Positions 37,722 to 56,300 are shown, numbered from the stretch's first letter. The stretch is 64,000 nt of DNA from a virus (IMGVR_UViG_3300033149_003588:10460-74459); one strand, 5' to 3'. Numbers and translations are program-made. The notes: a model not told the origin generated them from the sequence alone.

Positions 37722-37773
37722 ATGGCGCTCATTACAAGCGCCAATCAGTGTTAGTAAGTACTTTTATAAACTA

Positions 37774-37962
37774 CTATTTGCCCAAGAATTTGGCAGAAAT
37801 TTGTTTTAATCTTTTTAAATACTTCCTCCATGATTGAGGCACGCCACCCATTAATGGATATCTAGAAGGCAACACCTTGGTATTTATACCCACCGAGTGA
37901 GGCATTTCAACAGTACTCATTAGCTCTTGAATATGTTCTTTATTCACAATAGGTATAATCAT
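37774..37962 (-). CDS. IQE-leader small basic protein (MIIPIVNKEHIQE)
   Basis: Shared leader; basic amphipathic C-terminus; ATGA overlap. Confidence 0.75.
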   Translation of the reverse strand: MIIPIVNKEHIQELMSTVEMPHSVGINTKVLPSRYPLMGGVPQSWRKYLKRLKQISAKFLGK

Positions 37963-38288
37963 TTTATATTTCTAATCTGTTTGAGTATATTTTTACCAAG
38001 CTTTTTATATGTCTTGCCAAGATTAATACGATGAGCTATCTTCTGGGTTAATATAGGGATCCTGTTACCCAAATATTTCTGGTGAAACATGGGTTCACTA
38101 ATACTTTTCCCACTATAAAATCTGCCCAGCATAGTACCTATATATTTCTCTCTATTAGTCCATCTTTTAAGTGGAGATTTTATCACTGCAAGCGCACCAG
38201 CCACAGGATCACCACCACCCATATATGTAGCATATCTCCTCAACGAGCCTGGCAGCCTTTCCTGTATACTCATAATTGGAATAATCAT
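37959..38288 (-). CDS. IQE-leader small basic protein (MIIPIMSIQE)
   Basis: Shared leader; K/R-rich cargo. Confidence 0.8.
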   Translation of the reverse strand: MIIPIMSIQERLPGSLRRYATYMGGGDPVAGALAVIKSPLKRWTNREKYIGTMLGRFYSGKSISEPMFHQKYLGNRIPILTQKIAHRINLGKTYKKLGKNILKQIRNIK

Positions 38289-38311
38289 AATATTGTTATC
38301 ATTAGATATAA

Positions 38312-38388
38312 TGGAGGTGTGGGCATCGAAGCCCAGTCCATGAATTACCTATATAAGGTCTTAATTCATGTCGAAACCTTTCACCCCC
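38312..38388 (-). ncRNA. ssrA: Mini-tmRNA: ssrA-like tRNA(Ala)-like domain only, no mRNA-like domain
   Basis: GGGGGTG AAAGGTTTCGAC ATGAATTA AGA CCT TATAT AGG TAATTCAT GGAC TGGGC TTCGAT GCCCA CACCTCC A: 7-bp acceptor stem with G3.U70 and discriminator A, tmRNA-type stemless D loop, closed P2-like helix, GGAC linker, T arm (6-nt loop). CCA is not encoded. Confidence 0.8.
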
Positions 38389-38399
38389 ATACTTGTATA

Positions 38400-39212
38400 C
38401 TATATTGCACTGTACCACCATTTACTATAAGTAGTAACAAGATCATCCTCTGTCTCGTGACTACCAATTTTATATTGCGTACTATCTATCCCCGTATCTC
38501 TTTCCACATCATATTGTACACTTGTAAAGTCCGCCACCGCTGATTCTTCTATCTTTCGCCAATATACTACACCATCTATAATCTCACGATACATACGCTG
38601 CTGCTCTCTTTCCCAATGAGAATCGAATACCCTTATGGCATCCATAATTTTTGTACTTAAATTTCCTGCGCCAATATTTGATCCAGGTTGACTTATACTA
38701 GGAATTAATAACCACTGATTTAATATTATCTGATAACAATGTCTCACGGCTCTATTGGTCAACCAACTTATATCCCACTTATTTAATTCAGATAAATCTG
38801 ATGGAATTTCTTTAACATCAGCTTCTGAGTGCATAAGGGCATCCCCGATTGCAGCACTTGATAATGAATCTGCCAAAGGGCCCAACTGTCTTATAACTCT
38901 ACCTAATAAACTATTACCCGTGTCCTCTTCTACTATAAATATTCTTTCAAATGTGGTATCACCAGCGGTCCATATATCTTTGTATATACCAGCAGTGTTG
39001 ATTGTTATAGTAATAGTATATTGACCAATTATGACCTCAGTAATGTCAGAAACATTAAGTGATATATCTGTATATTCTACCCAACCAGTTTCACCATCTA
39101 AATGATATATAGCAACATCAGTAAATCCAGGGTTATACAGTTCACCATCTTGATTATATGTAACCAAAGTTAGAGTTATAGGCTCGTCTATCGTATTATT
39201 ATAACGACTCAC
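38400..39212 (-). CDS. Putative head-tail adaptor/connector
   Basis: N-terminal Ig-like segment (IGQYTITITINTAGIYKDIW) and helical C-terminal adaptor-like domain; position upstream of the neck genes. Confidence 0.5.
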   Translation of the reverse strand: MSRYNNTIDEPITLTLVTYNQDGELYNPGFTDVAIYHLDGETGWVEYTDISLNVSDITEVIIGQYTITITINTAGIYKDIWTAGDTTFERIFIVEEDTGNSLLGRVIRQLGPLADSLSSAAIGDALMHSEADVKEIPSDLSELNKWDISWLTNRAVRHCYQIILNQWLLIPSISQPGSNIGAGNLSTKIMDAIRVFDSHWEREQQRMYREIIDGVVYWRKIEESAVADFTSVQYDVERDTGIDSTQYKIGSHETEDDLVTTYSKWWYSAI

Positions 39213-39245
39213 AGTCCATTCTCCCTAAATCTACATGATAACCCA

Positions 39246-39512
39246 TTATAAACGTGGTCTTTTTGCCTTTAAGTATATCTGTCCTATATTTTTATATATT
39301 TTCCCAGCATCTGTGCCCACATTTCGAGCTGCCATATAACCATAGAATTTCTTCTTCAATAATTTGGCTACATGTGGATTCTTGATATTGCCAAATGACG
39401 GAAGTATGAGGGCGTATTTACCACCATACGACGGGCTAGATATTAATTTCCTAAACATACCCATAACAGCAGACGGTGGAGTTTCTTGAATATGTATAAT
39501 AGGTATCAACAC
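39246..39512 (-). CDS. IQE-leader small basic protein (MLIPIIHIQE)
   Basis: Shared leader; GTG start in a TAGTG overlap. Confidence 0.8.
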   Translation of the reverse strand: MLIPIIHIQETPPSAVMGMFRKLISSPSYGGKYALILPSFGNIKNPHVAKLLKKKFYGYMAARNVGTDAGKIYKNIGQIYLKAKRPRL

Positions 39513-39742
39513 TACGACTTCCTCTTCTTACCTAGACCCTTTCCTTCGCCCTCACCAAAACCGGGACCCTCTTCACACGGCTCAGTGTTCTTATTTCTTC
39601 TCAGACCACCAGGCATACCTTTACCCTTGCCTGCTCCGGCCTTCTGTCCATAAATTACTGATTTTCCTCTACCACGTCTGAATAATCTGGCAAATAGATC
39701 ACCAATTTTCGTTTCCTGAATTATAATCGGTATTACCATCAT
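39512..39742 (-). CDS. IQE-leader G/K-rich protein (MMVIPIIIQE)
   Basis: Shared leader; GKGKGMPGGLRRNKN...GPGFGEGEGKGLG cargo; ATGA overlap with the endolysin gene. Confidence 0.8.
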   Translation of the reverse strand: MMVIPIIIQETKIGDLFARLFRRGRGKSVIYGQKAGAGKGKGMPGGLRRNKNTEPCEEGPGFGEGEGKGLGKKRKS

Positions 39743-40368
39743 TCCTCCATCTTTCTATATGATTTTTTAAACTTGCGTTTTCTTATCCATTTTTTATAGG
39801 CTGCTTTAGCTTTATTTATATACCCGTGCGGTACTACATCATCCTTATATGTGCCAGAATTATAACCATCAAATATATCATCTATACTTTTAGGATTATA
39901 CTTAAGCACCCTGTTATTCAAAAACTTAATCACATAAATAATGGCAATCTCATCATTATCTAGTTCCTCTGGTGTGCCACGAAATCCTAATTCCCAGGCA
40001 ACAACAAATAATATTTGCCATGATGAATAGCTTTTTGCAGCGGCTCTTCCGAACCTCTTCACTAAATCTCGAACTTGTTTAGATTTCTTATAATAATACC
40101 CACCTTTATAATATGATTTTTCAAAAAGTGGCTTTGTATTTTTACCATAATTGCTTTCGACGCATGCTATAGCCTTCAATAATATCTCTGGATCAACATT
40201 GATTCTTTTCAAATTTCTTAGATGTGGGGCATATTCCTCAATTAGCAACCCCAGTCTATTCTGCCTGGTTGTTGCTGCTACCCACCGTCGCATTTTTATA
40301 GTTTCAAGCATTTTATTTAAATTCCAGTGCAATATAATATATCTCCATGTTTCGACAATAACATTCAA
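39739..40368 (-). CDS. Endolysin, lysozyme/transglycosylase-like fold
   Basis: LLKAIACVESNYG (catalytic Glu), SYSSWQIL, AWELGF, YNSG motifs; basic tail; start may lie downstream. Confidence 0.8.
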   Translation of the reverse strand: MNVIVETWRYIILHWNLNKMLETIKMRRWVAATTRQNRLGLLIEEYAPHLRNLKRINVDPEILLKAIACVESNYGKNTKPLFEKSYYKGGYYYKKSKQVRDLVKRFGRAAAKSYSSWQILFVVAWELGFRGTPEELDNDEIAIIYVIKFLNNRVLKYNPKSIDDIFDGYNSGTYKDDVVPHGYINKAKAAYKKWIRKRKFKKSYRKMEE

Positions 40369-40424
40369 ATTATTTTATATCGTAGAATTCTTAAATATGC
40401 CCCACATGTAATCATCTGATTATA

Positions 40425-40859
40425 CTATTTATTTTTCTTCTTGAATGTTTTAGCGCCCTTCTTTAACGTCCCAAACAAATCACTAACTGAGCCCCATGCC
40501 TTTAATACATCTTTAACTGCCTCAACTGCTTCTTGATACTCTTTAATAATGGCTACCCGTTCTTCTTTGGTTATTTTCTTATCTTCAAGTGCTCCTATGG
40601 CTGATACCCCAACCTCTTGAGCTGCAATAATAGCTTCACCAACCTCCTTCATCAGTACACAAACACCAAGAATAATAGTTTTAACCTTGACAAATATTAC
40701 TGCAACAGCGCTAATACCTAGAACAATGGCAATAATCCAATTTATCAGTGACCATTGATCTATTCCTGGTATTAGATCTTCTATACCATCGGCCATGATG
40801 GTAGTCGTCGATACTGTCAATAATAACAATATCATATAAATTAGTGTACTCCATTTCAT
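40425..40859 (-). CDS. Membrane protein, putative holin/lysis protein
   Basis: Hydrophobic N-terminus, TM segment, ALEDKKITKEE motif, basic tail; adjacent to the endolysin gene. Confidence 0.6.
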   Translation of the reverse strand: MKWSTLIYMILLLLTVSTTTIMADGIEDLIPGIDQWSLINWIIAIVLGISAVAVIFVKVKTIILGVCVLMKEVGEAIIAAQEVGVSAIGALEDKKITKEERVAIIKEYQEAVEAVKDVLKAWGSVSDLFGTLKKGAKTFKKKNK

Positions 40860-40873
40860 ATTATCCTTCCTTT

Positions 40874-41503
40874 CTATGGTGTCGATCTCAACATCTCATC
40901 AGAATACGACACATTAAATATTGGCACACCATTTTGGATAGAATTATAAGAAATATCCTTTATTCCAGTAATCCCGCCCAATGCTGTCAAAATAGTAGGT
41001 AATTTAGTTATCAATATAAGATCATTTTTATAGTCAATAGTCTCCGAAATTAATATCTTGGGTACTTCCATTTCAACAATGCCGCCTACATCTACAAATG
41101 ATAATACGCCAATATTCTTGTCAAATCTAGACAATGGCATGGGATCATGAACATTATCTAAAAATGTAGCATCACTACCAATCTCATTTAATGTAAAACT
41201 CCTTATATAACTAATATCAATACTATCATTGCTCTCAACAACCAGACTATAATCATATGTCAAATCCTGTATAAGGGTAGTCGCGCTATCTTCTACTATA
41301 TTAATGGCTTTATCAACAGATAATGCAACCAATTCATCTCTAATTGATTCAATATCAAATATTGTCAGATATCGCATATACCACACAGTTACAACTATAT
41401 TACACGCAACTTGTCTTACAATATTGCCATCTATCGTATGTGTCTCGCTATAGTGGGGCTTTATATACTCAAATTTGTAATATGTTTTACAAGGATTGGC
41501 CAT
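40874..41503 (-). CDS. Hypothetical protein
   Basis: 209-aa ORF within the operon. Confidence 0.65.
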   Translation of the reverse strand: MANPCKTYYKFEYIKPHYSETHTIDGNIVRQVACNIVVTVWYMRYLTIFDIESIRDELVALSVDKAINIVEDSATTLIQDLTYDYSLVVESNDSIDISYIRSFTLNEIGSDATFLDNVHDPMPLSRFDKNIGVLSFVDVGGIVEMEVPKILISETIDYKNDLILITKLPTILTALGGITGIKDISYNSIQNGVPIFNVSYSDEMLRSTP

Positions 41504-41526
41504 TATAATTATGACAACAAAATAAT

Positions 41527-42717
41527 TTACATACTCACCCTATAATCACCATCAGGATATATCCAGCATGCTATTAACCCCTTTGCAGGTGGCGCATAAC
41601 CAAGTTCGCTACCATAACTGTCGAAATAATTTAAAAAAGAACTACAAATGACAATGTATTGTTTTTTAATATCCAACGTAAAATCTATGGGATTTCTCAC
41701 TATTCTATTCTTCTTTTTGTCTGTCGCATCATGCACATGACCACTTAAAAAGAAACAACAATGCTCTGTAAACATTAACGGAGATAATGCCGCATTAAGT
41801 TTGCCCCCTTCAGATCTAGCACTAGAACGACCATGCCAAGCATAAAATGTAAATGTGTGCTCCCCATATATTACATCTATAAATGCTGGTTCTCTGTAAT
41901 AAGGAATTTCTAGTTTGCTAGCTATTACCTCACCCATATCTATGCCAACACTATTTGCCGAACGTCTTTCGTGATTGCCTCTTACATATGCCAATATTTT
42001 ATGTTGTATTGGTGCTAATTTAGATATCATCTGGGCAGCTTGCGCCTGTGGTGACATGGATTGTCTATATACTGAATCTGCAACACTATACTTAGAACTG
42101 TTTTCTATCATGTCCCCCAACAATATTACATACACACCATCCGTATCGGCAATCCATTTTATACTCGTATCAAATAGCTCTTCATCAAAACTCGGTTCAG
42201 CATAGTGGACATCACCAAGTGGTATGATTTTTACTTTATCAAGTTCAAGATCTGAAGATGGTAATTGTACTCTTAAGTATGGGCAATTATCATTTTCATT
42301 AATAAATAATTTAAACTTCCTTGGTATAAAATCTAAATGCTTATTAAATTCCTTGAGTAGTGCAACTACTTTCCCGGTTGATCTAGTATTAAATTTAAAT
42401 ACTTCATATCCAAGTACACTCCCCAATATCTTATCTACTTCTTCTTCATTAATCCCATATTTATTATATAGCGCACGATATGATAATGCCCTTAATTTTG
42501 CCCAGCCAATAAGCGTAGCATGATCTAATTCCTTGACACTTTTTCTGCTAGCTAGCATGCCTCTTATTGGAGTAAGCCCCATCGCCATAGCCTTATTATA
42601 TACAGCGCTAGCTGTTCTTAGGGGTAACATATCTGCAATATTATTCAAAGACAAAATACCCCAATTATCTCTTATTACATTTTCTTCATCTACTGTCCAA
42701 CGTATATTACCAGCCAT
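41527..42717 (-). CDS. Calcineurin-like metallophosphoesterase with N-terminal Myb/HTH-like domain
   Basis: GDVH, GDMIE, GNHE, WHG and GHVH motifs; N-terminal RWTVDEENVIRDNW...IADMLPLRTASAVYNKA. Confidence 0.9.
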   Translation of the reverse strand: MAGNIRWTVDEENVIRDNWGILSLNNIADMLPLRTASAVYNKAMAMGLTPIRGMLASRKSVKELDHATLIGWAKLRALSYRALYNKYGINEEEVDKILGSVLGYEVFKFNTRSTGKVVALLKEFNKHLDFIPRKFKLFINENDNCPYLRVQLPSSDLELDKVKIIPLGDVHYAEPSFDEELFDTSIKWIADTDGVYVILLGDMIENSSKYSVADSVYRQSMSPQAQAAQMISKLAPIQHKILAYVRGNHERRSANSVGIDMGEVIASKLEIPYYREPAFIDVIYGEHTFTFYAWHGRSSARSEGGKLNAALSPLMFTEHCCFFLSGHVHDATDKKKNRIVRNPIDFTLDIKKQYIVICSSFLNYFDSYGSELGYAPPAKGLIACWIYPDGDYRVSM

Positions 42718-43028
42718 TATCCACCTCTTTTAAAAAAATTGAGCAAATTGGCCAATCTACTTTTACCAATTTTGGTAAAATTAGCAGAATGTTTACCACG
42801 CGCGGACTTGACAATAGATTTAAGTCTTTTCCTCATGAATTCCCTAGAATCGAAGATAGTAACATTAGGATGCCTGTACTCATTTTTTAGAAAGCGACCT
42901 TGTTGTAGTAAACCGCCCATCCTGCCCGCGATATTTGACCGCTTTAAAAAATCAAGCCCACTGTCTCTTTCCTGCGTTATCGGAACAGCACAATGGGCAC
43001 CAGAAATATTTACAATGGGCACTAACAT
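42717..43028 (-). CDS. IQE-leader variant small basic protein (MLVPIVNISGAHCAVPITQE)
   Basis: Extended leader with a duplicated VPI; basic cargo. Confidence 0.75.
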   Translation of the reverse strand: MLVPIVNISGAHCAVPITQERDSGLDFLKRSNIAGRMGGLLQQGRFLKNEYRHPNVTIFDSREFMRKRLKSIVKSARGKHSANFTKIGKSRLANLLNFFKRGG

Positions 43029-43045
43029 ATATTATTTACCCACCA

Positions 43046-43384
43046 TTACCCAGACAATATGCCAATCATACTAACTACAATACTTATAGAAATATATAAA
43101 ACCCCAAGCACTATATGAGTTCTCTTTAATACAAATCCTGTTTGCTCTCTCATGGCTTTCATAATATTGAGTTCTAATTTGTTGTTTTCTATTTGATCTC
43201 TTATTATTCTAAACTCGTCATCAATATTCTTCTGTTGACTATTCATAAATTCTTTAACTTCATCAATACTCTTTACCACTGCTCCTATTTCTTTCCACAT
43301 CTTGGTAATAATAATAGCAAGACGGCCCTCAATAAGCTTGCCATCATCATCATAGAGATTACTAAGATTATTATTATCTGCCAT
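43046..43384 (-). CDS. Coiled-coil protein with C-terminal TM helix (holin/XhlA-like)
   Basis: Heptad region followed by IVLGVLYISISIVVSMIGIL. Confidence 0.55.
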   Translation of the reverse strand: MADNNNLSNLYDDDGKLIEGRLAIIITKMWKEIGAVVKSIDEVKEFMNSQQKNIDDEFRIIRDQIENNKLELNIMKAMREQTGFVLKRTHIVLGVLYISISIVVSMIGILSG

Positions 43385-43393
43385 TATCGCTCA

Positions 43394-43681
43394 CTAATAT
43401 TTAAATTTTTTATATGTGTCACTCGATTCCATAATCATCATTGAAATAGAATGTTTTAGTTGTCTTATCGCATCAAGAAAAGCTTGCGGTTCAACCATGG
43501 CTTCAAGATTATAAAATCTTACAATATCTTCACGATTAACATTTTCAAAAATAAATTCTGCCTTATTATTATTTAAAAGAGCCTTCTTAACACCTACATA
43601 TTTGGCCCCGTTCAATAAATATAAATAGGCCGCCAAACAAATATCGCTAGTCGTACCACTATGCTTATCATAATGAGGCAT
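43394..43681 (-). CDS. DUF5659-like phage protein
   Basis: TSDICLAAYL...FIFEN...VEPQAFLDAIRQLK pattern; likely start MPHYDK at 43681 with AGGGG SD (the track start 43756 overlaps the upstream gene). Confidence 0.65.
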   Translation of the reverse strand: MPHYDKHSGTTSDICLAAYLYLLNGAKYVGVKKALLNNNKAEFIFENVNREDIVRFYNLEAMVEPQAFLDAIRQLKHSISMMIMESSDTYKKFKY

Positions 43682-43691
43682 TATTGTGCCC

Positions 43692-43976
43692 CTATTCTTT
43701 CTTGAATGGCCCCAATCCCAGTCTCTTCTGAATGGCTTCTGCCTTTTTATATACATCAGGACGATTATGTTGACGAGCTCTCGTTTTAGCAGCGCTCAAC
43801 ATTCTACTAGATATATTCCCAGCCTTATCACGATAAGGATATTTTCTATCAGATGGTGATAAAAACGAACTAGCAGGCATTTCTCGTCTCACAGCTGGAC
43901 GATGAAGCCATTTCTTCCCTGATAACCTGGCTCTCGTAATTTTTTGCTCTTGTATATTCACAATAGGTATTAACAT
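43692..43976 (-). CDS. IQE-leader protein with DUF6582-like cargo (MLIPIVNIQE)
   Basis: Shared leader; MPASSFLSPSDRKYPY...LSAAKTRARQH resembles the RKYP motif family; GAGGTG SD. Confidence 0.8.
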   Translation of the reverse strand: MLIPIVNIQEQKITRARLSGKKWLHRPAVRREMPASSFLSPSDRKYPYRDKAGNISSRMLSAAKTRARQHNRPDVYKKAEAIQKRLGLGPFKKE

Positions 43977-44029
43977 TAGAAAATCACCTCACTTATACAA
44001 CCATAAAATTAATTTACTTTTCTTTTTCG

Positions 44030-44344
44030 TTATCTATATGGATACACATATGGATATGGACGCATTTGTCTAGACAATTGAGGCTGACTACTCTGTTTCT
44101 TTATAGATCTTTTAGTAGCAATCTTCCCTCCTATCTTATAACCAGTATACCCAGCCAGCGGCACAGTACTAACAGCAGCACCACCCATGACTTTCGCTAA
44201 AACAGGATGTTTTCTCACAAATGTGGTAATCTTAGGCCCTCCCATACGTGCAATAAGCTCACCCATGCCACGCATAGCATGTAATGCTCTACTCCTAAAA
44301 GAACCTATAGGAACTTCTTGAATATGTACAATGGGTATAATCAC
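44030..44344 (-). CDS. IQE-leader small basic protein (MIIPIVHIQE)
   Basis: Shared leader; Gly/Ala hydrophobic stretch; ends RPYPYVYPYR. Confidence 0.8.
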   Translation of the reverse strand: MIIPIVHIQEVPIGSFRSRALHAMRGMGELIARMGGPKITTFVRKHPVLAKVMGGAAVSTVPLAGYTGYKIGGKIATKRSIKKQSSQPQLSRQMRPYPYVYPYR

Positions 44345-44353
44345 TATATAATT

Positions 44354-44704
44354 TTATATTATTTTAAATACTTTATTTTTTCTTTGTTTTTTTCTTAATT
44401 TTTCTATATTTTTTATAGCTCCCACACTGTTTGTGGGAATAGCAGCAATATCATGTGTGTCCACTCCCCTAATCTTTACATCTATAATATGTCTCTTGGG
44501 AATGCGACCCAATAAATAACCTGCCGGACCAGCCCCAAGAACACCAAGTCCTAATACCTTTTTATATTTACGAGTAGTTTTCCCAGAAGCACCCAATGAT
44601 TTTAATATAGCATGCCCCATTTTGCCAGGAATACTGCCAATCCTATTCATAGCTTTTATCTTATTAAATATACTTTCTCTTATGTTGATAACCGGTATAA
44701 ACAT
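44354..44704 (-). CDS. IQE-leader small basic protein (MFIPVINIRE)
   Basis: Shared leader; GLGVLGAGPAGYLLG; ends KVFKII. Confidence 0.8.
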   Translation of the reverse strand: MFIPVINIRESIFNKIKAMNRIGSIPGKMGHAILKSLGASGKTTRKYKKVLGLGVLGAGPAGYLLGRIPKRHIIDVKIRGVDTHDIAAIPTNSVGAIKNIEKLRKKQRKNKVFKII

Positions 44705-44737
44705 ATTAATATAGTTTTCTGTATTTACTACATAAAT

Positions 44738-44965
44738 TTATATTATCTTAAATACTTTCCGTAGTAAATTAAGTTTAGTAGCATTAACACCAAATGGTTT
44801 GGTACTTCCCATTATAGCTCGTGATAATCTTTTACGTATATTTAATCTCTTTGCTGCCTGAGCTAACTGCGCCATTACAAGCGGATCATGAACCCTCGGG
44901 ATAGATTTAGCATAGGTGCCCCCAACCTCTTGTATAATCTTCGCATTTGCTATAGGTATCAACAC
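44738..44965 (-). CDS. IQE-leader small basic protein (MLIPIANAKIIQE)
   Basis: Shared leader with insertion; ends KVFKII; TAGTG overlap. Confidence 0.8.
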   Translation of the reverse strand: MLIPIANAKIIQEVGGTYAKSIPRVHDPLVMAQLAQAAKRLNIRKRLSRAIMGSTKPFGVNATKLNLLRKVFKII

Positions 44966-45309
44966 TATTTCTTTTTCTTTCCTAATTTTTCTCTTATCTT
45001 GGATTCAATTTTATATTTCTCAAGCCCACGCGCGTATTTTGTTTTAAGGTATGGCTGCAAAAGAGCAGAAAGCCCACCCAACGCGCCAGCACCAAAAGTA
45101 GCACCCATAAGACCCCTGGTAATTGCCTTGCTACCTTTGGGACCGAAAAAACCCATTAGACCTCCCACACCACCCAATACGGCACCCCTCTTAAGCCCCG
45201 TATATGCTGCAGTAGGTCTTGTACGTATATATGCTAAACGACGTTTATATTTTTGAATTTGTTTATCAGGATCATCCGCTTCCTGTATATTTACAATTGG
45301 TATAATCAT
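44965..45309 (-). CDS. IQE-leader glycine-zipper basic protein (MIIPIVNIQE)
   Basis: Shared leader; GAVLGGVGGLMG and GATFGAGALGG zippers; TAATG overlap. Confidence 0.82.
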   Translation of the reverse strand: MIIPIVNIQEADDPDKQIQKYKRRLAYIRTRPTAAYTGLKRGAVLGGVGGLMGFFGPKGSKAITRGLMGATFGAGALGGLSALLQPYLKTKYARGLEKYKIESKIREKLGKKKK

Positions 45310-45836
45310 TATACGCTCTTCTTTTTCTTTTTATTTTTTCTAGACAACGCACCTAAACCATAACCAACACCATAACCACTGGCCGCATACCCCGCATAAG
45401 GTATAATAAAACCTAGCATATCATGGGGGTGTTTAGATCGCCACATCCAATTTTTAATTATTCGGGTACCCCTGCCACCATGAACCCTCGTTACATATTT
45501 TTTAATAGCGCTAGCACCACTCTCTTGTACTTTGCCCACCTTCATCGGTATTTTATGCTTACGACGTGTAGGAGACACCTTACGACGAGTCTTACGCGCT
45601 TTACCACCATGATACAAACCACTGAGACCCGCCATAGCAGCAGTATAATGCATTAGCGAACGTGAAAATCGGTCTTGATATGGATAACCCAATATCCACA
45701 AACTACGACGTGGATTAATAGATTTTGTATGTCCTATACTAAAATGCCCAAATAGATCAGGTTTCATAGCAATAGCACGTTTCCCAAATTTATAAAATCT
45801 ACCAGCCTCGCTTATATGCAGAATAGGTATAACCAT
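45309..45836 (-). CDS. IQE-leader two-module basic protein (MVIPILHISE; internal KIPMKVGKVQE)
   Basis: Shared leader; AAGGAG SD; second leader-like motif mid-protein. Confidence 0.8.
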   Translation of the reverse strand: MVIPILHISEAGRFYKFGKRAIAMKPDLFGHFSIGHTKSINPRRSLWILGYPYQDRFSRSLMHYTAAMAGLSGLYHGGKARKTRRKVSPTRRKHKIPMKVGKVQESGASAIKKYVTRVHGGRGTRIIKNWMWRSKHPHDMLGFIIPYAGYAASGYGVGYGLGALSRKNKKKKKSV

Positions 45837-45856: not shown

Positions 45857-45889
45857 AAAAGGGGTGCCAGATCTTACGCCTGGCACCCC
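45857..45889 (-). terminator. Intrinsic terminator after the capsid genes
   Basis: GGGGTGCCAG-(9 nt)-CTGGCACCCC followed by TTTT on the minus strand. Confidence 0.8.
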
Positions 45890-45959: not shown

Positions 45960-46526
45960 CTACTTCTCGCCCTTCTTCTTCCTAATCTTCTTAAGTAGTG
46001 CAGCAGTACCAGCACCAGCACCAGCAAGACCAGTGCCCATAATACCATAACCTACTTTTCTAGGATTCCTAAGCATAGCGTATAGGGGCTTTCTGGTTAA
46101 ATTACCAACACTAAGTCCCGCCCTCTGAACACCACCATAGGCACCACGAGCACCGGCAGTAGCACCTTTGGCTATGCCCGCACCGGCTTTCTTTAGACCA
46201 CCGTAAACACCAGTAGCACCTTTAGCTACACCACGAGCACCGGCGGCAACACCTTTAGCTACACCACGAGCACCAACGGTAGCACCTTTAGCTACACCAC
46301 GAGCACCAACGGTAGCACCTTTAGCTACACCACGAGCACCAGCGGTAGCACCTTTAGCTATAGTTGCGCCGATTTTTCTTAAAAACGTAAGTATATTGGC
46401 ACCGGCAGCTTCTTGAAGTGCTTCAACATCCAATTGACAGCCTGATAGTGATCCCTCCTGGATAACACCATCTTCATCAGCAGTGAACCACGATTCACCT
46501 ATCCTAATAAGATAAACTCTAGACAT
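45960..46526 (-). CDS. G/A/K-rich protein with 11-aa repeats and acidic N-terminal propeptide (putative internal capsid protein)
   Basis: Acidic N-terminus ending ALQE|A, then (AKGATVGARGV)n, a Gly-zipper and a KKIRKKK tail; directly after the major capsid gene; AAGGAGA SD. Confidence 0.75.
   Translation of the reverse strand: MSRVYLIRIGESWFTADEDGVIQEGSLSGCQLDVEALQEAAGANILTFLRKIGATIAKGATAGARGVAKGATVGARGVAKGATVGARGVAKGVAAGARGVAKGATGVYGGLKKAGAGIAKGATAGARGAYGGVQRAGLSVGNLTRKPLYAMLRNPRKVGYGIMGTGLAGAGAGTAALLKKIRKKKGEK
46213..46360. repeat. 33-bp coding tandem repeat, ~4.5 copies
   Basis: GTAGCACCTTTAGCTACACCACGAGCACC(A/G)(A/G)CG-type units starting at 46213, 46246, 46279, 46312 and 46345. Confidence 0.92.
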
Positions 46527-46535
46527 AATCTCTCC

Positions 46536-47630
46536 TTAAGAATTATTAGATCCCTTATACCAGGGGCGATAATCAAGAATTATCTTACCCCAGATGTGAC
46601 GAATTTTATAACGAATTTCATCGCGATTAAAAGCATTACCACTAGTGCTATTCTCAACGTACATCTCCGGTTCCCTATGTCCTCTCAAGAAACCAACTTC
46701 GAGAGTATCATATTGTTTGGGATCTGCTATAAGATACCACTCATCAGAACCCAACCAATTGGAAATTCTAATTTCCAATTTACCACCGATTTGGAAAAAG
46801 TTTGGCTCGTTCGGAGTATGAGTTCTAGCAACACCATCGGTATGATACATGTGCGTGCCAGGATCAATACCAGCAGCTGTAATGGTACCATCGGTAATCG
46901 GAACAGTTCTTGCATTGAGAACTTTTAGGACCCTAACTTCCTGTTCAGGACCAATAAGTAGATACCTCGGTGTCATACCAATAACATTCTCATTACGCAG
47001 GTCTTTCTGTGTTCTTATGGCTTTATAACCATCAGCTAGCTTAGCCTCAGTAATAACATTAACACCAGTATCTACATTACCATGATCTGACGCAAAAAGT
47101 GTCGCACCATCATAAATAGTGGGATTGCCAGTAATATAGGTTATGATGTCTTTATCAAGACTACGCTTGGCGGCCCTGCCCATCTTGATAGGTTGCTGCC
47201 TCAAAACATGTAGGTCGTCATTTATGATACATTCCCATGAGATACCAAAAATGCGCCCGTACTTCTGAACATTATACTTAATCTCTTCTTCGGCGAGTGC
47301 ACTATCTCTATATTCACCGTGCTCAATAACTGCCTCTAGAAGATCAGCTTCACTTACACGTTCCCTGTATTGATCTTTGAAATCATTAACATCATTAATT
47401 GCCGAAGCAAGATCCTGCCATGTGCTAGGGAGTTCCTTGTATTCTTTGAGTAGTTGTTTAAACATCGTATTCCTAAGAATATAAGGAAAATCAGCAGAAC
47501 TTGCAGCTTCTTGCAATAACAGATTGTAATGACCGCGTTCGATCTCATCAAGAGCTATCTCTTGAATAGGAGTCAAATGGCCTTCATTTTCAGCCCTGAA
47601 TTGCGTCGCCCATGTTTTAGGATCGTACAT
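46536..47630 (-). CDS. Major capsid protein (Mu gpT-like, HK97 fold)
   Basis: SSADFP, VNDFK, HGEY, KYGRIFGISWECIINDD, LFASDHGN, PRYLLIGP, WYLIADP, IRYKIRHIWG...DYR motifs. Confidence 0.92.
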   Translation of the reverse strand: MYDPKTWATQFRAENEGHLTPIQEIALDEIERGHYNLLLQEAASSADFPYILRNTMFKQLLKEYKELPSTWQDLASAINDVNDFKDQYRERVSEADLLEAVIEHGEYRDSALAEEEIKYNVQKYGRIFGISWECIINDDLHVLRQQPIKMGRAAKRSLDKDIITYITGNPTIYDGATLFASDHGNVDTGVNVITEAKLADGYKAIRTQKDLRNENVIGMTPRYLLIGPEQEVRVLKVLNARTVPITDGTITAAGIDPGTHMYHTDGVARTHTPNEPNFFQIGGKLEIRISNWLGSDEWYLIADPKQYDTLEVGFLRGHREPEMYVENSTSGNAFNRDEIRYKIRHIWGKIILDYRPWYKGSNNS

Positions 47631-47774: not shown

Positions 47775-48152
47775 TTAAACCGCCCACTCCCTCAAGAGTA
47801 TGATAGCTTCAGTATCAGCAGTAGTATAAGCAGCCGTAAAGCAACCTATTTCTACACCCGTAGTATTAACAACCTTGCTCTCGCCACTATCCCAATACGC
47901 AGTGCTCCAGGCTGCTACGGTACCAGTATCACTAGTAATAGAACAAGGAAGCGTCCAGCTACCACCACGGTATACTGCGCCAGTATCAGTAATATTGTAT
48001 TCCTGCGAATCCGAACCCTTGGGCAGGATCTTACTCAAAGCAATACCGATTAATTCACCATCTAGCACAAGATCGCCACTATTAATAGTGTCGGTATCGC
48101 TCGGATTAGTATAATCTACAACCCTTCCATCCTTTACTTTAATTTTGGCCAC
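47775..48152 (-). CDS. Capsid cement/decoration protein (DUF2190-like)
   Basis: INSGDLVLDGELIGIAL...GAVYRGGSWTLP...AYWD...IG pattern; between protease and capsid; GGAGG SD with GTG start. Confidence 0.8.
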   Translation of the reverse strand: MAKIKVKDGRVVDYTNPSDTDTINSGDLVLDGELIGIALSKILPKGSDSQEYNITDTGAVYRGGSWTLPCSITSDTGTVAAWSTAYWDSGESKVVNTTGVEIGCFTAAYTTADTEAIILLREWAV

Positions 48153-48196: not shown

Positions 48197-49633
48197 CTAG
48201 GCTGTAGCCGTATCAGTTTCAAAACCAATATAAGCGGCAAGCCTTTTTTCGGGCGTGACTTCTTCATCATCACCAACTGTCACACCAACAGGCGGAGTCG
48301 CGAGCCCCTCGGTAATGTGCTGAATATAAGTAGCCTCGTCATTAATTATGTCCACCATATCATCAACGGATTCACAAGCTAGCATAGCCGGGAAAATCCG
48401 TTCTTTAGATTCATCAGAAAGGTTACTCTCCTGAAGCAGCTGCTCAGCTAATCTAGTGGTCTCGTTCTTAACCACGCCATTGGTTAATTCCTCAATCTTG
48501 GCCCGAGTAGCAGCAATATCTTCATTCTGAGCGATTATAGTATTAGTAAGCTGTTCAATAGTCTGCTGCTGCTCTAAGAATGCAGGATGCTGAGTAATGT
48601 CAATGAGCTGATCGCCTTCCTGAACTGGCTCAACACCAACCTGTTCAGTGTCTCCATACTCACCCTCATCATACTCATCCCCGTACTCATCTTCAACTAT
48701 ATAAACTTCATCAATATCAAGCCCCAAACTACCATCAGAACTTTCCTGAATATAGTTTAAAATGGGGTCAAGCTGCATAATCTCGCCAGTCTCTTCATCC
48801 ATAACATAACCATCGCTTTCCATAATGCTAACAAGATTAGTTATAAGCTCATCCCTTTCAGCAAGCTCAGCGTCATAATCAACCTTAGCATTAGTAATGA
48901 TGGCTTCCACCAAATCGGGGCGCGATTCAGTAAGTTGTTCAATGGTAACTTTATCTAGGCCTTCCATTGTAACCTCCTCAATGTTATTATCAATTATCTT
49001 CTTGTTGTCTATTCCACCATCAACATTGGTATTAATCATACCTAATTCAGCCTCGGTCAAGCGCCTTATTTTACCGCCAGCAGAGGCCTCACTAACAAAA
49101 TCAGCACACCTTACTGTATGTACATGCTGTACTACCTTTGTGGGTACACCATTAATATCTTTATCTTCTGTCTGGGCAATAATATCAATACTGATACCCA
49201 AGTCATCAAGAGCAGAATTGGCATGTAAATCTTTAATAAAATTCTTAAAATCATCACGCACAAATTTAGCATCGGCCTCAATTACTTGTTTAGGACGTCC
49301 CATTATATCAACCCCGCCATCTGGATGATCTATAACCCTGGGATTCCTAATTAAAGCCACCCAATTATCAATGGGATGAGCAAGTCTACCTACATCATTG
49401 GGATCTTGATGATCTCTATACATCTTCTTACCGTCAAACATCGGGGCCAATTGAGCAAGTATTTCAGGAGAATAATATATCCCTTGTTTGGATCTGCCCG
49501 ATTCCATAAGAATAACAGTGGCGTCACTATCTTTATTAGAACTAGCCTTTACTCGGCGGCCTAATCCGGCTTCTCTTATAAGATTTATATCATCGTTATT
49601 CATAAATCTGCTCATTAAATAGTGTTTAATCAA
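48197..49633 (-). CDS. Prohead protease fused to an acidic scaffold (T4 gp21-like / herpes-fold protease)
   Basis: ILMESGRSKQGIYYS, MYRDH (His), LGISI (Ser), CADFVSEASAGG; acidic coiled-coil C-terminus. True start may be 49615. Confidence 0.85.
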   Translation of the reverse strand: MIKHYLMSRFMNNDDINLIREAGLGRRVKASSNKDSDATVILMESGRSKQGIYYSPEILAQLAPMFDGKKMYRDHQDPNDVGRLAHPIDNWVALIRNPRVIDHPDGGVDIMGRPKQVIEADAKFVRDDFKNFIKDLHANSALDDLGISIDIIAQTEDKDINGVPTKVVQHVHTVRCADFVSEASAGGKIRRLTEAELGMINTNVDGGIDNKKIIDNNIEEVTMEGLDKVTIEQLTESRPDLVEAIITNAKVDYDAELAERDELITNLVSIMESDGYVMDEETGEIMQLDPILNYIQESSDGSLGLDIDEVYIVEDEYGDEYDEGEYGDTEQVGVEPVQEGDQLIDITQHPAFLEQQQTIEQLTNTIIAQNEDIAATRAKIEELTNGVVKNETTRLAEQLLQESNLSDESKERIFPAMLACESVDDMVDIINDEATYIQHITEGLATPPVGVTVGDDEEVTPEKRLAAYIGFETDTATA

Positions 49634-50286
49634 CTAGATTCGTTCACATCTTCTTCTGTATTACCTATATCAGTAATCTGTTTGCGCAATAGCTCTATAA
49701 ACTTGGTCACATCATCCTTATGCTTCAAAATAATAACTCTATTAGGTGTAACCCACATACCATCTATCAATATTTTTTCATGAGGACCAGGATTTAATAA
49801 ATGCTCAGATACGCTAAATACCGGATAATGTGCGGGACTAAGTATATGTTCTATAACATCATCTAACACGACATCACGAAGATTACCATTGTTATCACTA
49901 GTTTTAACCCCCATTATGCCAGACATATAAACATGAGCCAACACTAATGGCCACAAATAAATTGGTATTTTATTAAGATCCACATCTAATAATGGTTTAT
50001 CTAGCCTTTCATCAAGGTACTGACCCTTTATACCCTCTTGCGGTAAATCTGCTGCATTAGTCATAGATGTCTTCGATATCTCCCCAAGAGTCTTATCATC
50101 GCTAACCGCAGCTTCACATAGTGGATGTAAATCAACTGCCGATATCAAAGAGCGAGCAAATAATATAGATTCTGTTACACGTTTTTTCTTATTCATATTA
50201 TGCTTACTGTGTTTAACAAATTTGCGTGCAATATCGGGCTTTTGCGCCCACAAAAATCTACGTTGCTTCTCACTAACAAAAGGCAT
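49630..50286 (-). CDS. Head-module protein with N-terminal MPFxSEKQRR motif
   Basis: MPFVSEKQRRFLWAQKPDIARKF is a recurrent small motif in phage head modules. Confidence 0.65.
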   Translation of the reverse strand: MPFVSEKQRRFLWAQKPDIARKFVKHSKHNMNKKKRVTESILFARSLISAVDLHPLCEAAVSDDKTLGEISKTSMTNAADLPQEGIKGQYLDERLDKPLLDVDLNKIPIYLWPLVLAHVYMSGIMGVKTSDNNGNLRDVVLDDVIEHILSPAHYPVFSVSEHLLNPGPHEKILIDGMWVTPNRVIILKHKDDVTKFIELLRKQITDIGNTEEDVNESS

Positions 50287-50367: not shown

Positions 50368-53300
50368 TTACATCTTTGTTATTATGTGTTTAATCATCTC
50401 TAACTCCTCTTTTAATGCATTTAATACATCTTTGCTAAGAGGATATTCAGGATTTTGTAGAGTGTCGATTATTCTATTACCCCTATTGATAAGTAGTGCT
50501 TTTTTCAACTCCTCCTTACTAATCTTTCTTTTCCACCCACCGACACGCTTATACATAATACCATATCCCTTTCCAGCATCATCCAGCCATGCCCTAGATA
50601 TCTGTTCGCTAGATAATTTCTTGGGTTTACCACGATATACCCTATCATGTGCATCAACATTAATATTCAATTTATCAATTAATTCTGGGTTATCACGAAC
50701 CATGTCTATCAATGTATTAGTGGTGGCCCTATCATTTAATGTAATATCCACTATATCATGAGCTGCAGTATGTATATCATTAGCATGAGGCATCCTACGT
50801 AATGCACCAAAATCGTATCCGCTCATAAATATAGTATCTAATGGATCCCATGGATTATAATAAAATAACTGCCATATAGTAAATTTTTCACCAGATTCAG
50901 TAGCTATGGGGGTAAGACCAATACGCCTAGCGTCAACAAACGCATCACTCTGAAATACATAAGAACCAATTCTATATGTATTTTCAGTATTTGGGCGTCC
51001 TATGGGAATAGCTAATCGCATTATAGATTTAAATTGGGATATATCAATGGGCATACCAAGCTGTGTTTCTATATCATGTCTAGCTTGTAAAACACTTTTC
51101 AAAAATTCTTGTGCTACTATAGAATATTCACTACTAGCTTCCATAGAATTAAATGAAAACGAGTTAATAACACCACCCAGAAAATCAGCACGATCACCAA
51201 CATTTTTAACAGTGCCAATCCAGGGCTGTGCACCATGTATTCTTAGTGATGCATCAAGTAACAATCTACTGGGCATGTCAAGATCTGGATCTACATCAAT
51301 ACGAGTAAAGGCATTATTAACATTGGTTTCTACCCTAAATTTTATCGGAGCGGTACCCATATTTATATCTGCAAGTGCCGTGGCATCATCTATCCCTGCT
51401 TCTGCTGGCATATAAAATATCCTGCCATTCTGATAACAATATCCAATCCATTTATGCTCGGTTATACCAGGCTGAGCGCCAGGGGCCCATGCGGTACCCA
51501 ATATTAACTCACGTAATACGGTTTTCTTGCCAGTTACTGGACTAATCACACTAGTATATGGACCACGCCACGCAGTCATAGTGAGACGTCCAATAACCTC
51601 GCGCGCCCTAGGAGTCAGTTTGCTCTTTATAAAATCTTGCCTAACAGTATCAAGTTTTCTCCATTGCCTAAGAAATTCTAATACACCAGGAGAACCAGTA
51701 TTTTTCAATATGTCAACTAGTGACATATTCCAAAACTCAAGATTGTGATCACTAACAGATATGTGACCAATCTTTTCTATTAATTTAGCTATTGCGGCAC
51801 TTATCTTTTCTATATTGTTAGATACCCTGTCAGCAATATGGGCCGACATAGTACTCGTAATTTTCCATCTTAAATAAGATAATTCCTTTCCACCCAATTC
51901 ACTAAATGATGGCCATTTATCAACAGCCCCCTTTAGTGGCACACCACTAGGGTTAAACCCACCATATATCATATCATATATTTCCTTATTAGTATATAAA
52001 CCTGTATCTTTCAACTCTTGTACAACTTTACCTACGGCCTCGACACCATAAAATTCCACACCACTAGGATCAGTATATAAATACTTGTCAAACAAAGCGA
52101 TATTAAACGCTTCACATATCTTATCTTGCTCGGCATTCAGAACAGACTTAATATCAAGTCCCAAAGAATCAACGAGTTCGGTTATAACCGAGTCAGCTGC
52201 TATTATACGTCCATTCACTATGTTCCTCGCCATAAGATCTATGGCCATACTAATATCGCCAGACTCATAAAACATTTTTAGCGCGTCTTCAATTTCCCGA
52301 AGAGTTAATTCCTTGTGCCTTTCCGCAAGCTCTTCGGCACTAAGCCCTTCGTCACGATGTTCCTTAAATAAAGTAAACAATCTATCATATATATGATCGT
52401 GTGAAATACTACCCAATAAAACACGTATATCAGATGTCACACCCCCATCTACCAATGAAACAGTATTATCTACTGCAATCTTTTGAATAGTCCGGACAAT
52501 ATCTGTGTTACCCTTGCTAAAATTTATCGCTGCATCAATAGAATCTGGTCCATACACAATTCTAGATATAAGACTTCTATTATATTTATCTTTAAACTCA
52601 GACCATAATTCGTCCCCACGTTTAACCGGCATAGCCTCCTTCCACTCATATATCTTATCATGGACAACCCGTGGAGATAACCCATTAGTAAATACCCCTT
52701 CCATATATAGTACACCATAATTAGAATTAACATTAAATCTGCCCCCCAAATCATCAGGCGAGGTTACAGCTAATTCAAACAAAGACTGCTGATATTCCAC
52801 CTCACCAGCACTTCCAATCTTATCCCGTATTCTTGATAACCTTTTTCTATCTATCTCGACAGTAGAACGATTAGCCATTACAGCAGTGGGGAGGAATATT
52901 GGTGTATAAGTACACCTACATCTTCTATGACGTGGTAGAACTGGCATTATGTGCCACTTTTCTTGTGGATAAATCTTGCCAGCATCAGCCAGGCAAACCG
53001 GACAAGTCATATTATCCATTACAACAGTAATCATAATGCCTTGCAATAAATCAGCATTGTCATTCATAAGCTGCTTTACAGCCGTGTTCACATATACACG
53101 CGCAAAATCCTGATATACAGCATATCTCCCAACCATCTTATCTTTGCCACTATATTGCCCCCTCAATATACCATATATATTATCTTCTAATCTATTAAAA
53201 TTAGTACCAAGATAGGCCTCTGGATTATTCTTAACCCTCATTTCTAAATCATCAAGATCTTTATACATATCTAATAATAAACGCCTATCATAGTGTGACA

Positions 53301-56300
53301 ATGTTAATTTATTATCTTTAAACCCAATCTTACTATATATCCTCCTCATCGTGGCCATAGTCTTACGATTATCAACAGTTACACCGATATCAGAATACAT
53401 GGTATTAACAAGAGCCGAATTAGAAACTATAGTATCATGTATACTCTTATCAATCTCACTAGACAATATACTGTTCCCAACTATCGAATCTATAACTTCC
53501 AAACCCCAATCATGCCCAATCCTCCCAAGTAATTTTTTAATGGGTTTATATATAAGACCTTTACGCCTAGGAACCCTACCAGCCATTATGCTCTTTACAT
53601 CAGAAAATAATCTACTAATAGCTCTCTTAGTAGCGCGTAGTTCTATGAATAAACCACCATATTCTTTGGCAAAATCACCTAATATTGAAATAACTTGTTG
53701 CGCCTTCATACCCATGATACCACGGAACAATAACATCATCTTGTAATATAAATTAGTACCATCATTCATTATTTTGGTAACCATACCAGGAATAGGTCTG
53801 GCACCAGTGGTTGCTGCACGCCTTTTTACTTCCTCAATTAATAAACGATACTCCTCGATATATGCCATCTTAGTTAAAAAAGACATTCTACGGGCCTCGA
53901 TATTATCCAAGCCAAACCTATCAAGCTGCCCAATATAACCACTCACTATATCATCGGGTGATATGCCAGTCGCTGCTCTTATCTGCGCGGGCCATGCATA
54001 AACTATGAATCTAGCATAAGATAATACATCACTGCGACCCATGTCTGGATTTGTTCTTAGCATTTGAAAAGCAGACTCTAAATCAAGCTTAGGCGCAAAA
54101 TCATTCAACCGACCAATAATATGATCAACAACAGACACCTTCCTATACATGGCTTCATCTATCCACCCAATAATAGTTCTCTTATCTAGTCCCTTAACTC
54201 CTGCATTATTAGCTATATCCAATACCCTTCGAGCATACCTATTGCAATCCGCTTTATATAAGTCCCGCATAGTATCTATTATATCTCTAACAGCATCCCG
54301 GGCGTTTATATTTATATATGATGGCCTATCAACAAATGATGTGGCCTCACTCAATATACTTTGATACCTAGCATATTTAGCCTTTGTAGCCATAAGCTTA
54401 TCTATACGTTTTTGTATAGCCGACCACGGTTCATTGTGAATCGGTAGCATTATCTCTCTTTTAGCAGAGGGTATCTTTTTAGTAGGAAATTCAAATGATA
54501 GCACCTCGGTATATGCGGTAGTATTCCTAGCCCTCTCATATAGGGGGCGAAGATGATCCAATTTCTCTGATGCACTACCCAATGCCCCCTCATATTTTGC
54601 AAGATTACCAAATAAAACCTCAACAGCCATACCAGGATCATCATATATAACGTTGGCACTATACTCAACCCCAAAATATGATGACAATTTAGCCCATATG
54701 TCCTTTTTAACAGAGTCATCAATATATTTAAATATCTCATTAGCCAAATACCCATACTGGGTATTAATTATATTACGAGATCCAGATGTATGCAGGAGCG
54801 TATTCTCTATTCGTTTAAGTGCATATAAAACCTGGTCCAAATCATTACTACGTAATTTAGCCTTAATAACGCTCTTGTCCAGTATATTTATATTATCAAC
54901 AATATTATCTAATATCCTCTGAACATTATCAATACCACCGAATATATCATACATTTTATCCAGTGTAGATCTCAGATTATATTTAATAATACCTATATCC
55001 TTCTGAACATCTTGTATTCTATCTATTACTTGCCGAGGGGAAACCATTTTAATCTTTTTCTTGGTTATACGCTCTTTCACCTCGATGTCCTCAATAATAC
55101 TTCTAAAGATAGACCATGCCCCATTATAATCACGATTATCAATCGCCTCATACATGTCAAGCCTATACATATCATATTTTTGCCTAGGTAATGCATATCC
55201 AACCAATGCATCTATTTGTGCTATCATATCTCTAGCCAACTGCTCTTCACCAGCAAACATCCCATTTTTATATGGGGCTTCTACACCCAATATATCTGCC
55301 AATGCTGCTCTACCATCAGGTGTAGAGATTATCTGCTTCAAAGTAGCATTATTATCTACATATGTAAATACCGCAGCCCTATGGGCCCGTGCAAGTTCTA
55401 GTTTATCGAACATTTCTAAAAATATAACATCGCCAGGCTTCACTCCGGCATGCTTTATATGTAACAACTCATCCAGCCTAGATGCCAATACCTTATATTC
55501 GTCAGTATGCTTATCTAAATACTTCAATCTATCTTCAATAGTAAGTATAGCACTATCTATACTAATAGTGGTAAATTCTTCCCATGATGATATATTATAC
55601 TTGTAGCGTAAAAATTCGGTCATTCGACCAATAATACCACCTGACCCTGTATCACCACCATCTAACATATCTATTAACTTGGAATAATATAAAACATTAT
55701 TAGGTTTTATACCACCAGAAACACCAGTTAATTCATCTAGTGAACGATATGCTACCCAGCCACCTATATAAGCATTGATTAATTCATCAAGCTGTTTCTC
55801 TGTAAATGTCAAGCCAGTATTATTATTCATTAAAAAAGCTTTCGCCTTCTTTAATAATAATTCCTGGGGCCCCCAATCTTTATCAAATGCCTTTCTCATC
55901 CTAGCAATAACCTTGGCGGGCTCTCCTCTTGCTCTGGCTAGAGCTTCTTCACTGTCTTCACCCATCTTGGCAAGCATAATCTTTGTATATAGCTTGACAT
56001 ACTGTGTGGGGGTCATATCAGATGGTAATACCCGTTCAAATAATTCATCAATCTGAGCATGAATTTGTCTAAATTGTGGCCTAACAACATATTTATTGCT
56101 AGATATTATCTCTCCTAATCTGTCTCTTAGATAATCCGGCCTACCAATATGCATTAAAATCTCTTCCAAACGTCTGTGTACACGCATCACTGCCTCTGGG
56201 TCTTCCTTAACAGTCACACGAAATAGCCTATTCATTAAAATAGCATATGCTTCATCCGCCGAAAAATCTGGCACACTAGAAATATTCATACTGTGCTTAA

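Follow-up and report, generated by a model that had tools for sequence, protein, structure and literature searches.

A candidate packaging leader on small basic proteins of an uncultured phage outside the T4 group

Why would eleven small phage proteins with largely unrelated bodies begin with nearly the same ten residues? The question is raised by a 64,000-nucleotide stretch of the virus IMGVR_UViG_3300033149_003588 (the window; G000:C1:10460-74459, positions counted within it), which belongs to a 144,798-bp record of an uncultured phage with 37% GC. Between positions 37774 and 45836, eleven minus-strand open reading frames (ORFs) of 62-175 amino acids (aa) carry a leader of the type MIIPIVNIQE. 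A sequence-only reading of the window had reported these ORFs, and their coordinates and lengths were recovered, as was their arrangement in four patches past the major capsid gene among lysis and neck genes. The leader is probably a packaging propeptide that resembles the capsid-targeting sequence (CTS) of phage T4 in a non-T4 lineage, and its cargoes probably bind DNA as internal proteins of the head, from which some would be ejected.

Conservation and build of the leader

The leader is confined to these eleven ORFs within the 144.8-kb genome, all of them in the head-neck region. A genome scan for an N-terminal methionine followed by two hydrophobic residues, proline and another hydrophobic residue gave 18 rows, 12 of which represent the 11 leader genes; the other six are internal starts or have no Ile/Leu/Val-x-Glu following. 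The pattern Pro...[ILV][QRS]E matched eight times in 159 minus-strand ORFs (the seven leaders present in this ORF set and one internal copy in the scaffold) compared to 0.13 matches in shuffled proteomes, and chance is thus excluded. Counted from the first methionine, the glutamate is residue 10 in eight leaders, as had been noted from the sequence, and residue 13, 13 and 20 in the remaining three; the leader starting at 39742 has its proline at position 5 and is hence one residue out of register. Met1, Ile3, Pro4, Ile8 and Glu10 are invariant in the ten aligned leaders. The alignment omitted the leader at 43028, which has Val3 and ends in ITQE with threonine at P3.

This conservation is at the level of the protein and not of the DNA, because third codon positions vary most (identity at codon positions 1/2/3 of 0.69/0.92/0.53 within the seven in-register leaders), conservation stops at the glutamate (0.21/0.18/0.35 just past Glu10) and the 30 nt upstream reach an identity of only 0.37 (background 0.27). 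Furthermore, Pro4 is encoded by all four proline codons across the leaders. The same data bear on the idea that the leader is the by-product of a DNA cassette, a translation start or recombination element that recruits new genes. A repeat finder does group the leader DNA into families of 25-34 nt, and the ORFs at 44965 and 44704 have a C-terminal tail in common that hints at local duplication. The barely conserved upstream DNA and the variable third positions largely refute the cassette, however, and the extended leaders retain both protein parts, so that we regard it as very improbable. The common tail comprises the last six residues (KVFKII) of both proteins and is encoded by near-identical DNA (44738-44760 and 44354-44375), which suggests that a local duplication took place where the genes adjoin.

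In three leaders, the M-x-I/V-P-I start is retained but the glutamate lies 3, 3 and 10 residues further on. The leader is therefore bipartite, with an N-terminal M-x-I-P-I part and an Ile-x-Glu site that are separable.

Head-maturation sites and protease

Glutamate sites similar to that of the leader recur in the phage head. The prohead protease, which is fused to an acidic scaffold (48197..49633, minus strand), has nine [ILV][QRTM]E[ASG] sites compared to 0.31 expected. The major capsid protein (46536..47630, minus strand; PF25209, Mu gpT-like by family search) has two N-terminal [IL]QE sites that are kept in relatives, E41 being invariant and E24 nearly so in 14 homologues, and the portal has IQE44-A. 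Moreover, an 11-residue propeptide ending in LQE-A opens seven of the nine closest capsid homologues; the capsid N-termini nearest to that of the window are P0008 and P0010. Four of the 159 ORFs are enriched for the [ILV][QRTM]E[ASG] class, namely protease-scaffold, capsid, a 188-aa protein next to the capsid gene and a primase-helicase. Judged by its sequence, the Glu site of the leader is of the same class as those in capsid, portal and scaffold and probably belongs to the head-maturation system.

The protease itself fits this assignment. Its putative catalytic residues His75, Ser148 and Asp178 are invariant in 20 homologous domains, and Glu194, close behind the domain and nearly invariant, is likely a self-cleavage site. 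Neighbors by ESM features are mainly Peptidase_S77 (22 of 30 matches, best 0.96, 186 shared features) and also S80, which we take to be the families of T4 gp21 and phiKZ gp175, respectively. An AlphaFold model of the protease (predicted local distance difference test score, pLDDT, 77.5) has 73 matches at E<=0.001 in BFVD with capsid maturation proteases on top (E about 1e-7); a model of the whole protein from four sequences was unusable (pLDDT 40.6). The N-terminal domain thus models as a capsid-maturation serine protease similar to the T4 gp21 type.

The scaffold also holds an internal leader-like segment, P-I-L-N-Y-I-Q-E-S (Pro290-Glu297), within a stretch missing from the scaffolds of relatives; the support is modest, as one match compares to 0.13 expected proteome-wide. 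Scaffolds of relatives have helical LVE-S sites that resemble the leaders of those phages, and the tags may mimic a scaffold-scaffold contact. In the favored mechanism, the leader would dock basic proteins on the prohead scaffold core, with the scaffold as docking partner as suggested by its leader-like segment. The phage's own head protease would cut after Ile-x-Glu, and the trimmed basic cargo would stay in the head alongside the DNA. We infer packaging, cleavage and docking partner alike. The sequence-only reading had likewise proposed an address tag clipped by the phage protease, and this proposal gains support from four independent lines, namely the Glu sites in capsid, portal and scaffold, the fitting protease, a cargo domain that is fused to proteases elsewhere and the array of a sister phage.

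A sister phage and known packaging signals

IMG/VR holds six contigs from about three related phages (46-47% in the capsid). Single-protein and alignment scans for further members of the clade returned only the same six IMG/VR contigs or one of these phages, G004, alone, and a metagenome scan gave short fragments only. G004 (178 kb, 92% complete by its record) has matches to 21 window ORFs and encodes a series of basic proteins at 31.9-42.3 kb, around a homolog of the window's putative lysin. These proteins start with MDILRILIE, MDVMRYLLIE, MYSFFELLLE, MIGQILFYNKLIE, MNVMKYLLE, MFNYVTWLLE and MKHKIDRLVE. Unlike the Pro-leader of the window, the G004 leaders are helical and end in L-L/I-E, with hydrophobic residues at P6, P3 and P2. 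A regular expression for these leaders (11 cationic proteins among 14 matches, Fisher p=1e-5) was fitted post hoc to data already seen, and we therefore rely on a generic rule that was not fitted to G004, an early [ILV]xE followed by a basic remainder. This rule selects 10 of 281 ORFs in G004, seven of them inside 8.5 kb, and 9 of 176 in the window genome (seven leaders, the 188-aa protein and one other), where ORF calling lost three leaders. It selects 1 of 193 in G005, whose contig is without the tail-distal region, and 2 of 144 in unrelated phage loci. Searches of the cargoes against the DNA of relatives gave nothing below E 0.2. With the same array layout, another leader and no cargo in common at this threshold, the architecture persists between these phages, whereas both tag and cargoes are replaced; by sequence comparison, the sister phage has the same system behind another tag.

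The G004 array opens with a basic 537-aa ATP-dependent DNA ligase with a LigD 3'-phosphoesterase domain behind MSKLDRLLE-A (G004:C1:31890-33503; L027:11890-13503). It is a candidate for a capsid-packaged repair enzyme, and no homolog was found in the window genome. Downstream of the capsid gene, G004 and G005/G001 encode a 329-338-aa polyprotein of Gly-rich, polybasic modules split by VAE-S, LEE-G/VEE-G and VYE-G/A; such Glu-delimited polyproteins lie at L034:16946-17962, L010:15260-16249 and L017:5795-6031 in three relatives. Next to one of them, a basic protein (L010:16233-16529) has a possible start M-L-F-P-F-T-I like the Pro-leader, with VQE-G and IAE-S about 25 residues in; this is a single case with an uncertain start. 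G002 carries three tandem cement paralogs (L011:8410-9949) compared to one in the window.

The ligase is also relevant to the question whether the leader is an address at all. The proteins could be head-associated and cut while the leader acts as a self-associating or inhibitory propeptide, a hydrophobic β-strand that co-aggregates or mutes a toxic basic peptide, and DNA binding of the cargo drives loading. The leader is indeed a short hydrophobic peptide with a proline, whereas the G004 leaders are helical, the basicity of the cargoes would suffice to follow DNA, and the 188-aa protein has Glu sites without an M-x-I-P-I part. On the other hand, the putative address part stays N-terminal while the Glu site moves in three of 11 proteins, as would a docking motif, the scaffold contains a leader-like segment (the modest match described above), and the G004 leader sits on a folded ligase of 537 aa that needs no muting. 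Hence, we consider a propeptide without address function unlikely, though it is the strongest of the alternatives.

How does the preferred reading, a CTS-like packaging propeptide, compare to known systems? The T4 CTS has 10 residues, with processing at residues 8 and 10 and an L/I-X-E motif, according to the accessible part of PMC9026906. As far as this source and PMC3012670 could be drawn on, the CTS on IPI, IPII, IPIII (and Alt) is, like the window leader, a 10-residue N-terminal peptide with Ile8/Glu10 on small, basic and divergent proteins, is removed by gp21, shares its L/I-X-E site with capsid and scaffold, and has separable targeting and processing parts. The window leaders correspond to it as propeptides of about 10 aa common to unrelated small basic proteins and by their L/I-X-E ending, in which Ile and Glu are invariant in the ten aligned leaders and which is I-T-Q-E in the eleventh. 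They differ in the targeting part, M-x-I-P-I with an invariant Pro4. T4-type residues are absent at positions 4 and 7, where the window has Pro4 and Asn/His7, which agrees with the earlier statement that the tag is unrelated in sequence; the T4 sequence compared is the one quoted in the sequence-only reading. Moreover, unlike T4, the window phage combines a PF25209/gpT capsid with a protease-scaffold fusion, a 5,279-aa MuF protein and a probably non-contractile tail, lacks a gp21/gp22/gp23-type set and has 11-12 cargoes in one genome, known here from sequence. By these features it is not T4-like and unrelated to T4; among cultured phages, the top capsid identity is about 32%. The leader thus most likely works like the T4 CTS but stands outside that family by sequence and host phage.

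Other head-loading systems share single traits with the window. In phiKZ and SPN3US, the head ejection proteins are processed by Glu-specific head proteases (gp175/gp245), the type proposed for the window, with many cleaved internal proteins and a processed portal, to which IQE44-A of the window portal corresponds; the consulted portions of PMC5694885 and PMC10052503 describe mostly long propeptides (up to >100 aa) on paralog families, in contrast to a short common leader on unrelated small proteins. Phage P1 DarB has an N-terminal signal that loads the head of a non-T4 phage, and the part of PMC9024508 available to us reports neither an N-terminal consensus nor a common cleavage site for the Dar proteins, whereas one consensus is found on 11 proteins here. 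MuF-linked and polyvalent proteins (Iyer et al. 2017) are effectors that are packaged into the head and whose genes adjoin those of portal and protease, and the window genome has a giant MuF protein; in the excerpted account (PMC5512222), however, they load by fusion to MuF or portal and not as separate small tagged genes. A literature search, with subscription papers mostly outside its coverage, found no description of this leader nor of CTS-like arrays beyond T4-like phages, giant phages and P1.

Several observations weigh against a cleaved address tag. The residue past the leader Glu is Ala/Ser in only three of 11 proteins (Thr 2, Val 2, Arg 2, Gln 1, Leu 1), whereas the scaffold sites mostly precede small residues, so that cleavage of some leaders may be inefficient or may not occur. 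The [ILV][QRTM]E[ASG] class was chosen after inspection of the sequences, and the primase-helicase scored as well (3 compared to 0.35 expected). Foldseek of the protease model against PDB gave no match at E<=0.001, hidden Markov model searches of PDB and Pfam with the protease were blank, and the Glu specificity of its clade is presumed. SPN3US loads 42 head proteins uncleaved, as stated in the accessible text of PMC10052503, and such tags are therefore not required for packaging. A scan of related phages for a conserved leader had been proposed in the sequence-only reading. Among the phages with DNA to search, which do not include those of P0008 and P0010, the exact Pro-leader was seen in one genome only, the G004 array has a different leader, and a degenerate DNA pattern of the leader gave nine matches in IMG/VR, none in a leader family. 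Likewise, no array was seen within 10 kb in 22 GTDB loci of smaller prophages whose capsid and protease belong to the families found in the window. The same holds for two viral loci with related capsids, and of 13 loci found with the lysin as marker, the 12 outside G004 are without an array.

A wider scenario can be put forward only tentatively. A lineage of large lambdoid/Mu-capsid phages of anaerobes, probably with non-contractile tails, might have evolved T4-style loading independently, with private codes that are swapped wholesale between sisters (β-type M-x-I-P-I...I-Q-E in the window, helical M-D-x-x-x-x-L-L/I-E in G004) and each copied from the phage's own scaffold. Such phages might inject a peptide arsenal together with a LigD-type ligase that repairs or circularizes the incoming genome.

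Cargoes, gene neighborhood and implications

The leader genes, all on the minus strand, encode protein 1 (45309..45836, 175 aa, MVIPILHISE), protein 2 (44965..45309, 114 aa, MIIPIVNIQE), whose gene has a stop/start overlap with that of protein 1, protein 3 (44738..44965, 75 aa, extended leader with Glu13), protein 4 (44354..44704, 116 aa, MFIPVINIRE), protein 5 (44030..44344, 104 aa), protein 6 (43692..43976, 94 aa), protein 7 (42717..43028, 103 aa, extended leader with Glu20), protein 8 (39512..39742, 76 aa), whose start is coupled to the stop of the putative lysin, protein 9 (39246..39512, 88 aa), protein 10 (37959..38288, 109 aa) and protein 11 (37774..37962, 62 aa, extended leader with Glu13). 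Three of the 11 (44965, 44344 and 39512, proteins 3, 5 and 9) start with GTG. The four patches are 45836-43692 with six genes, 43028, 39742 with 39512, and 38288 with 37962. Protein 1 is probably a two-module polyprotein because a single VQE-S site lies within it, at residue 105; [ILV]xE is otherwise rare in the cargoes, with two in the 12 window bodies including one inside this protein.

The twelfth body is that of the 188-aa protein adjoining the capsid gene (45960..46526, minus strand). Its acidic 39-aa propeptide with IQE24 and LQE39 is followed by 11-residue Gly/Ala/Lys repeats (GVAKGATxGAR-type, 33-nt period) and a polybasic tail, with a net charge of +27, and a search for homologs gave nothing convincing. 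It is likely a further cargo with its own leader, different from the shared one, which the family of 11, correct as counted, had missed. A 218-aa protein (49630..50286, minus strand) without family match has a basic N-terminal module followed by VTE-S, and its start looks by eye like a G004 cationic-array protein.

After trimming, the cargoes would have 49-165 aa; they are Glu-poor, with net charges of +8 to +33 and pI values of 10.5-12.0. The K/R-rich character described earlier thus holds, whereas complete divergence does not: the top pairwise BLASTP hit among the 12 bodies has E = 0.12, but several have a Gly-rich stretch and a polybasic tail in common and proteins 3 and 4 end alike. PHROG and Pfam gave no family for 10 of the 11 cargoes. 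The cargo of protein 6 is a small basic domain, phrog_16160, with 57 homologs among 1.84 billion representatives, none of which (0/57) carries the leader. Eight of the 32 scanned homologs, the best-scoring and longer ones of the 57, score above cut-off for a prohead-protease family (Mu-like_Pro 3, Peptidase_S78 3, and DUF2213 2, which we take to be a protease family). The leader is therefore an add-on where other phages use fusion; the domain appears to enter the prohead by protease fusion in those phages, with the tag replacing the fusion here.

What might such cargoes do? The basic internal proteins of T4 were first thought to bind DNA and screen charge, and internal-protein loci are polymorphic in T-even phages. 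Most window cargoes would be DNA-binding, charge-screening internal proteins as well. DNA condensation had been suggested, and the strong basicity agrees with it; 1,000 copies at a mean of +16.5 offset about 6% of the genome charge (about 290,000 phosphates), however, and hence the cargoes cannot be the main condensing agent. Some cargoes are probably ejected with the DNA and would act in the first minutes of infection, a subset we favor because the cargoes are diverse and a relative has a tagged ligase. An anti-defense role is conceivable by analogy to IPI* only.

A membrane-active role, also suggested earlier, does not hold as a general one, since an amphipathic helix exceeds shuffles (p<0.05) in just 5 of 22 cargoes, among them the C-terminal helix of protein 10 (p=0.015). 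A related alternative assumes late membrane-active peptides, lysis helpers or antimicrobial-like, that the head protease would activate in the cytoplasm and that remain unpackaged. It draws on the position of the leader genes among lysin and holin-like genes, on the lysin homolog in the G004 array and on Gly-zipper-like hydrophobic segments in some cargoes. The maximum 19-aa hydropathy reaches 1.3-1.4 in three of 11, and protein 2 combines such a segment with a polybasic tail, although all its ESM atlas leads are below 0.9 and the Gly-zipper lead is weak (0.76). Besides the scarcity of amphipathic helices, the hydrophilic cargo at 43692, protease-fused elsewhere, and the DNA ligase behind a G004 leader speak against it, and prohead proteases such as T4 gp21 work inside proheads. 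Taken together, unpackaged membrane peptides seem distinctly improbable.

The gene order on the minus strand is terminase, portal, 5,279-aa MuF-motif protein, 218-aa protein, protease-scaffold, head decoration/cement protein (47775..48152, minus strand; PF09956 by family search), major capsid, 188-aa protein, leader genes, and tail genes with the tape measure. The leader genes are intermixed with holin-like, phosphoesterase, lysin-like and neck genes; the putative lysin (39739..40368, minus strand) has no family match and is named by inference. A constant leader on a variable cationic core would also fit the layout of bacteriocins or ribosomally synthesized and post-translationally modified peptides, with a leader for export or modification. 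The sequence-only reading had named a neighborhood of exporters or modifying enzymes as the sign of this, and no peptide exporter, C39 peptidase, Lan or YcaO enzyme was found in the 131 window-genome ORFs scanned with Pfam (30+25+76; not every ORF). The only radical SAM gene adjoins NrdD, the cores of 49-165 aa are without Cys patterns, and the locus is a phage head module, which leaves this origin extremely unlikely.

Of the terminator-like hairpins in this region, the two longest flank the run of leader genes, one of 11 bp (45861..45889, minus strand) separating the capsid and 188-aa genes from the first leader gene and one of 9 bp (37723..37743, minus strand) directly past the last. Because the total is at chance level (7 compared to 7.0 expected), only their positions are informative; a promoter scan was likewise at chance level (61 compared to 58). 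No sheath was recognized among the scanned ORFs of the window genome, and its candidate tube has no match to the G004 tube, for which the search returned a PHROG of major tail proteins (E 7e-10). The tail is probably non-contractile. NrdD/NrdG are encoded in the genome, which suggests an anaerobic host.

Further features of the genome are noted here. The MuF-linked giant protein spans window positions 50368-64000 and beyond (G000 60827-76666); its MuF-like motif is common to relatives, which hold equally large, divergent giants. Its N-terminus (I-P-I-I, no Glu site) was rejected as a leader, being weak (rank 30 of 44,101 windows). NrdD contains an intein and a LAGLIDADG domain (G000:C1:88931-92074). 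Outside the window, an adenylosuccinate-synthetase-like gene (G000:C1:111635-112900; L087:10835-12100; minus strand) with homologs in G004 and G005 has PurZ as top NCBIfam match (217 bits, below the cut-off of 300) and a serine in the N-terminal motif where PurA presumably carries aspartate; 2-aminoadenine DNA is possible. About a dozen tandem DUF4116-repeat paralogs at both record ends (G000:C1:477-3219 and 136436-144760) have the N-terminal sequence D-x-I-x-K-x-x-I-x-H-K-L-Q-T-G-K in common. Rhamnose-pathway enzymes and glycosyltransferases lie past the tail genes (window 3036-8271), possibly for virion or DNA glycosylation.

The principle of tag-directed loading is known from the T4 internal proteins; new are the sequence code, the lineage and the replacement of the leader between sister phages. 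If our reading is true, tag-directed head loading would be a general, repeatedly invented solution, with a second code in the window phage and a third in its sister. The leader would give a sequence rule to spot injected proteins, which are prime counter-defense candidates, and the two codes would provide orthogonal tags for protein packaging. Furthermore, protease-scaffold, capsid and a tagged reporter would form a minimal three-gene system for asking what a CTS binds.

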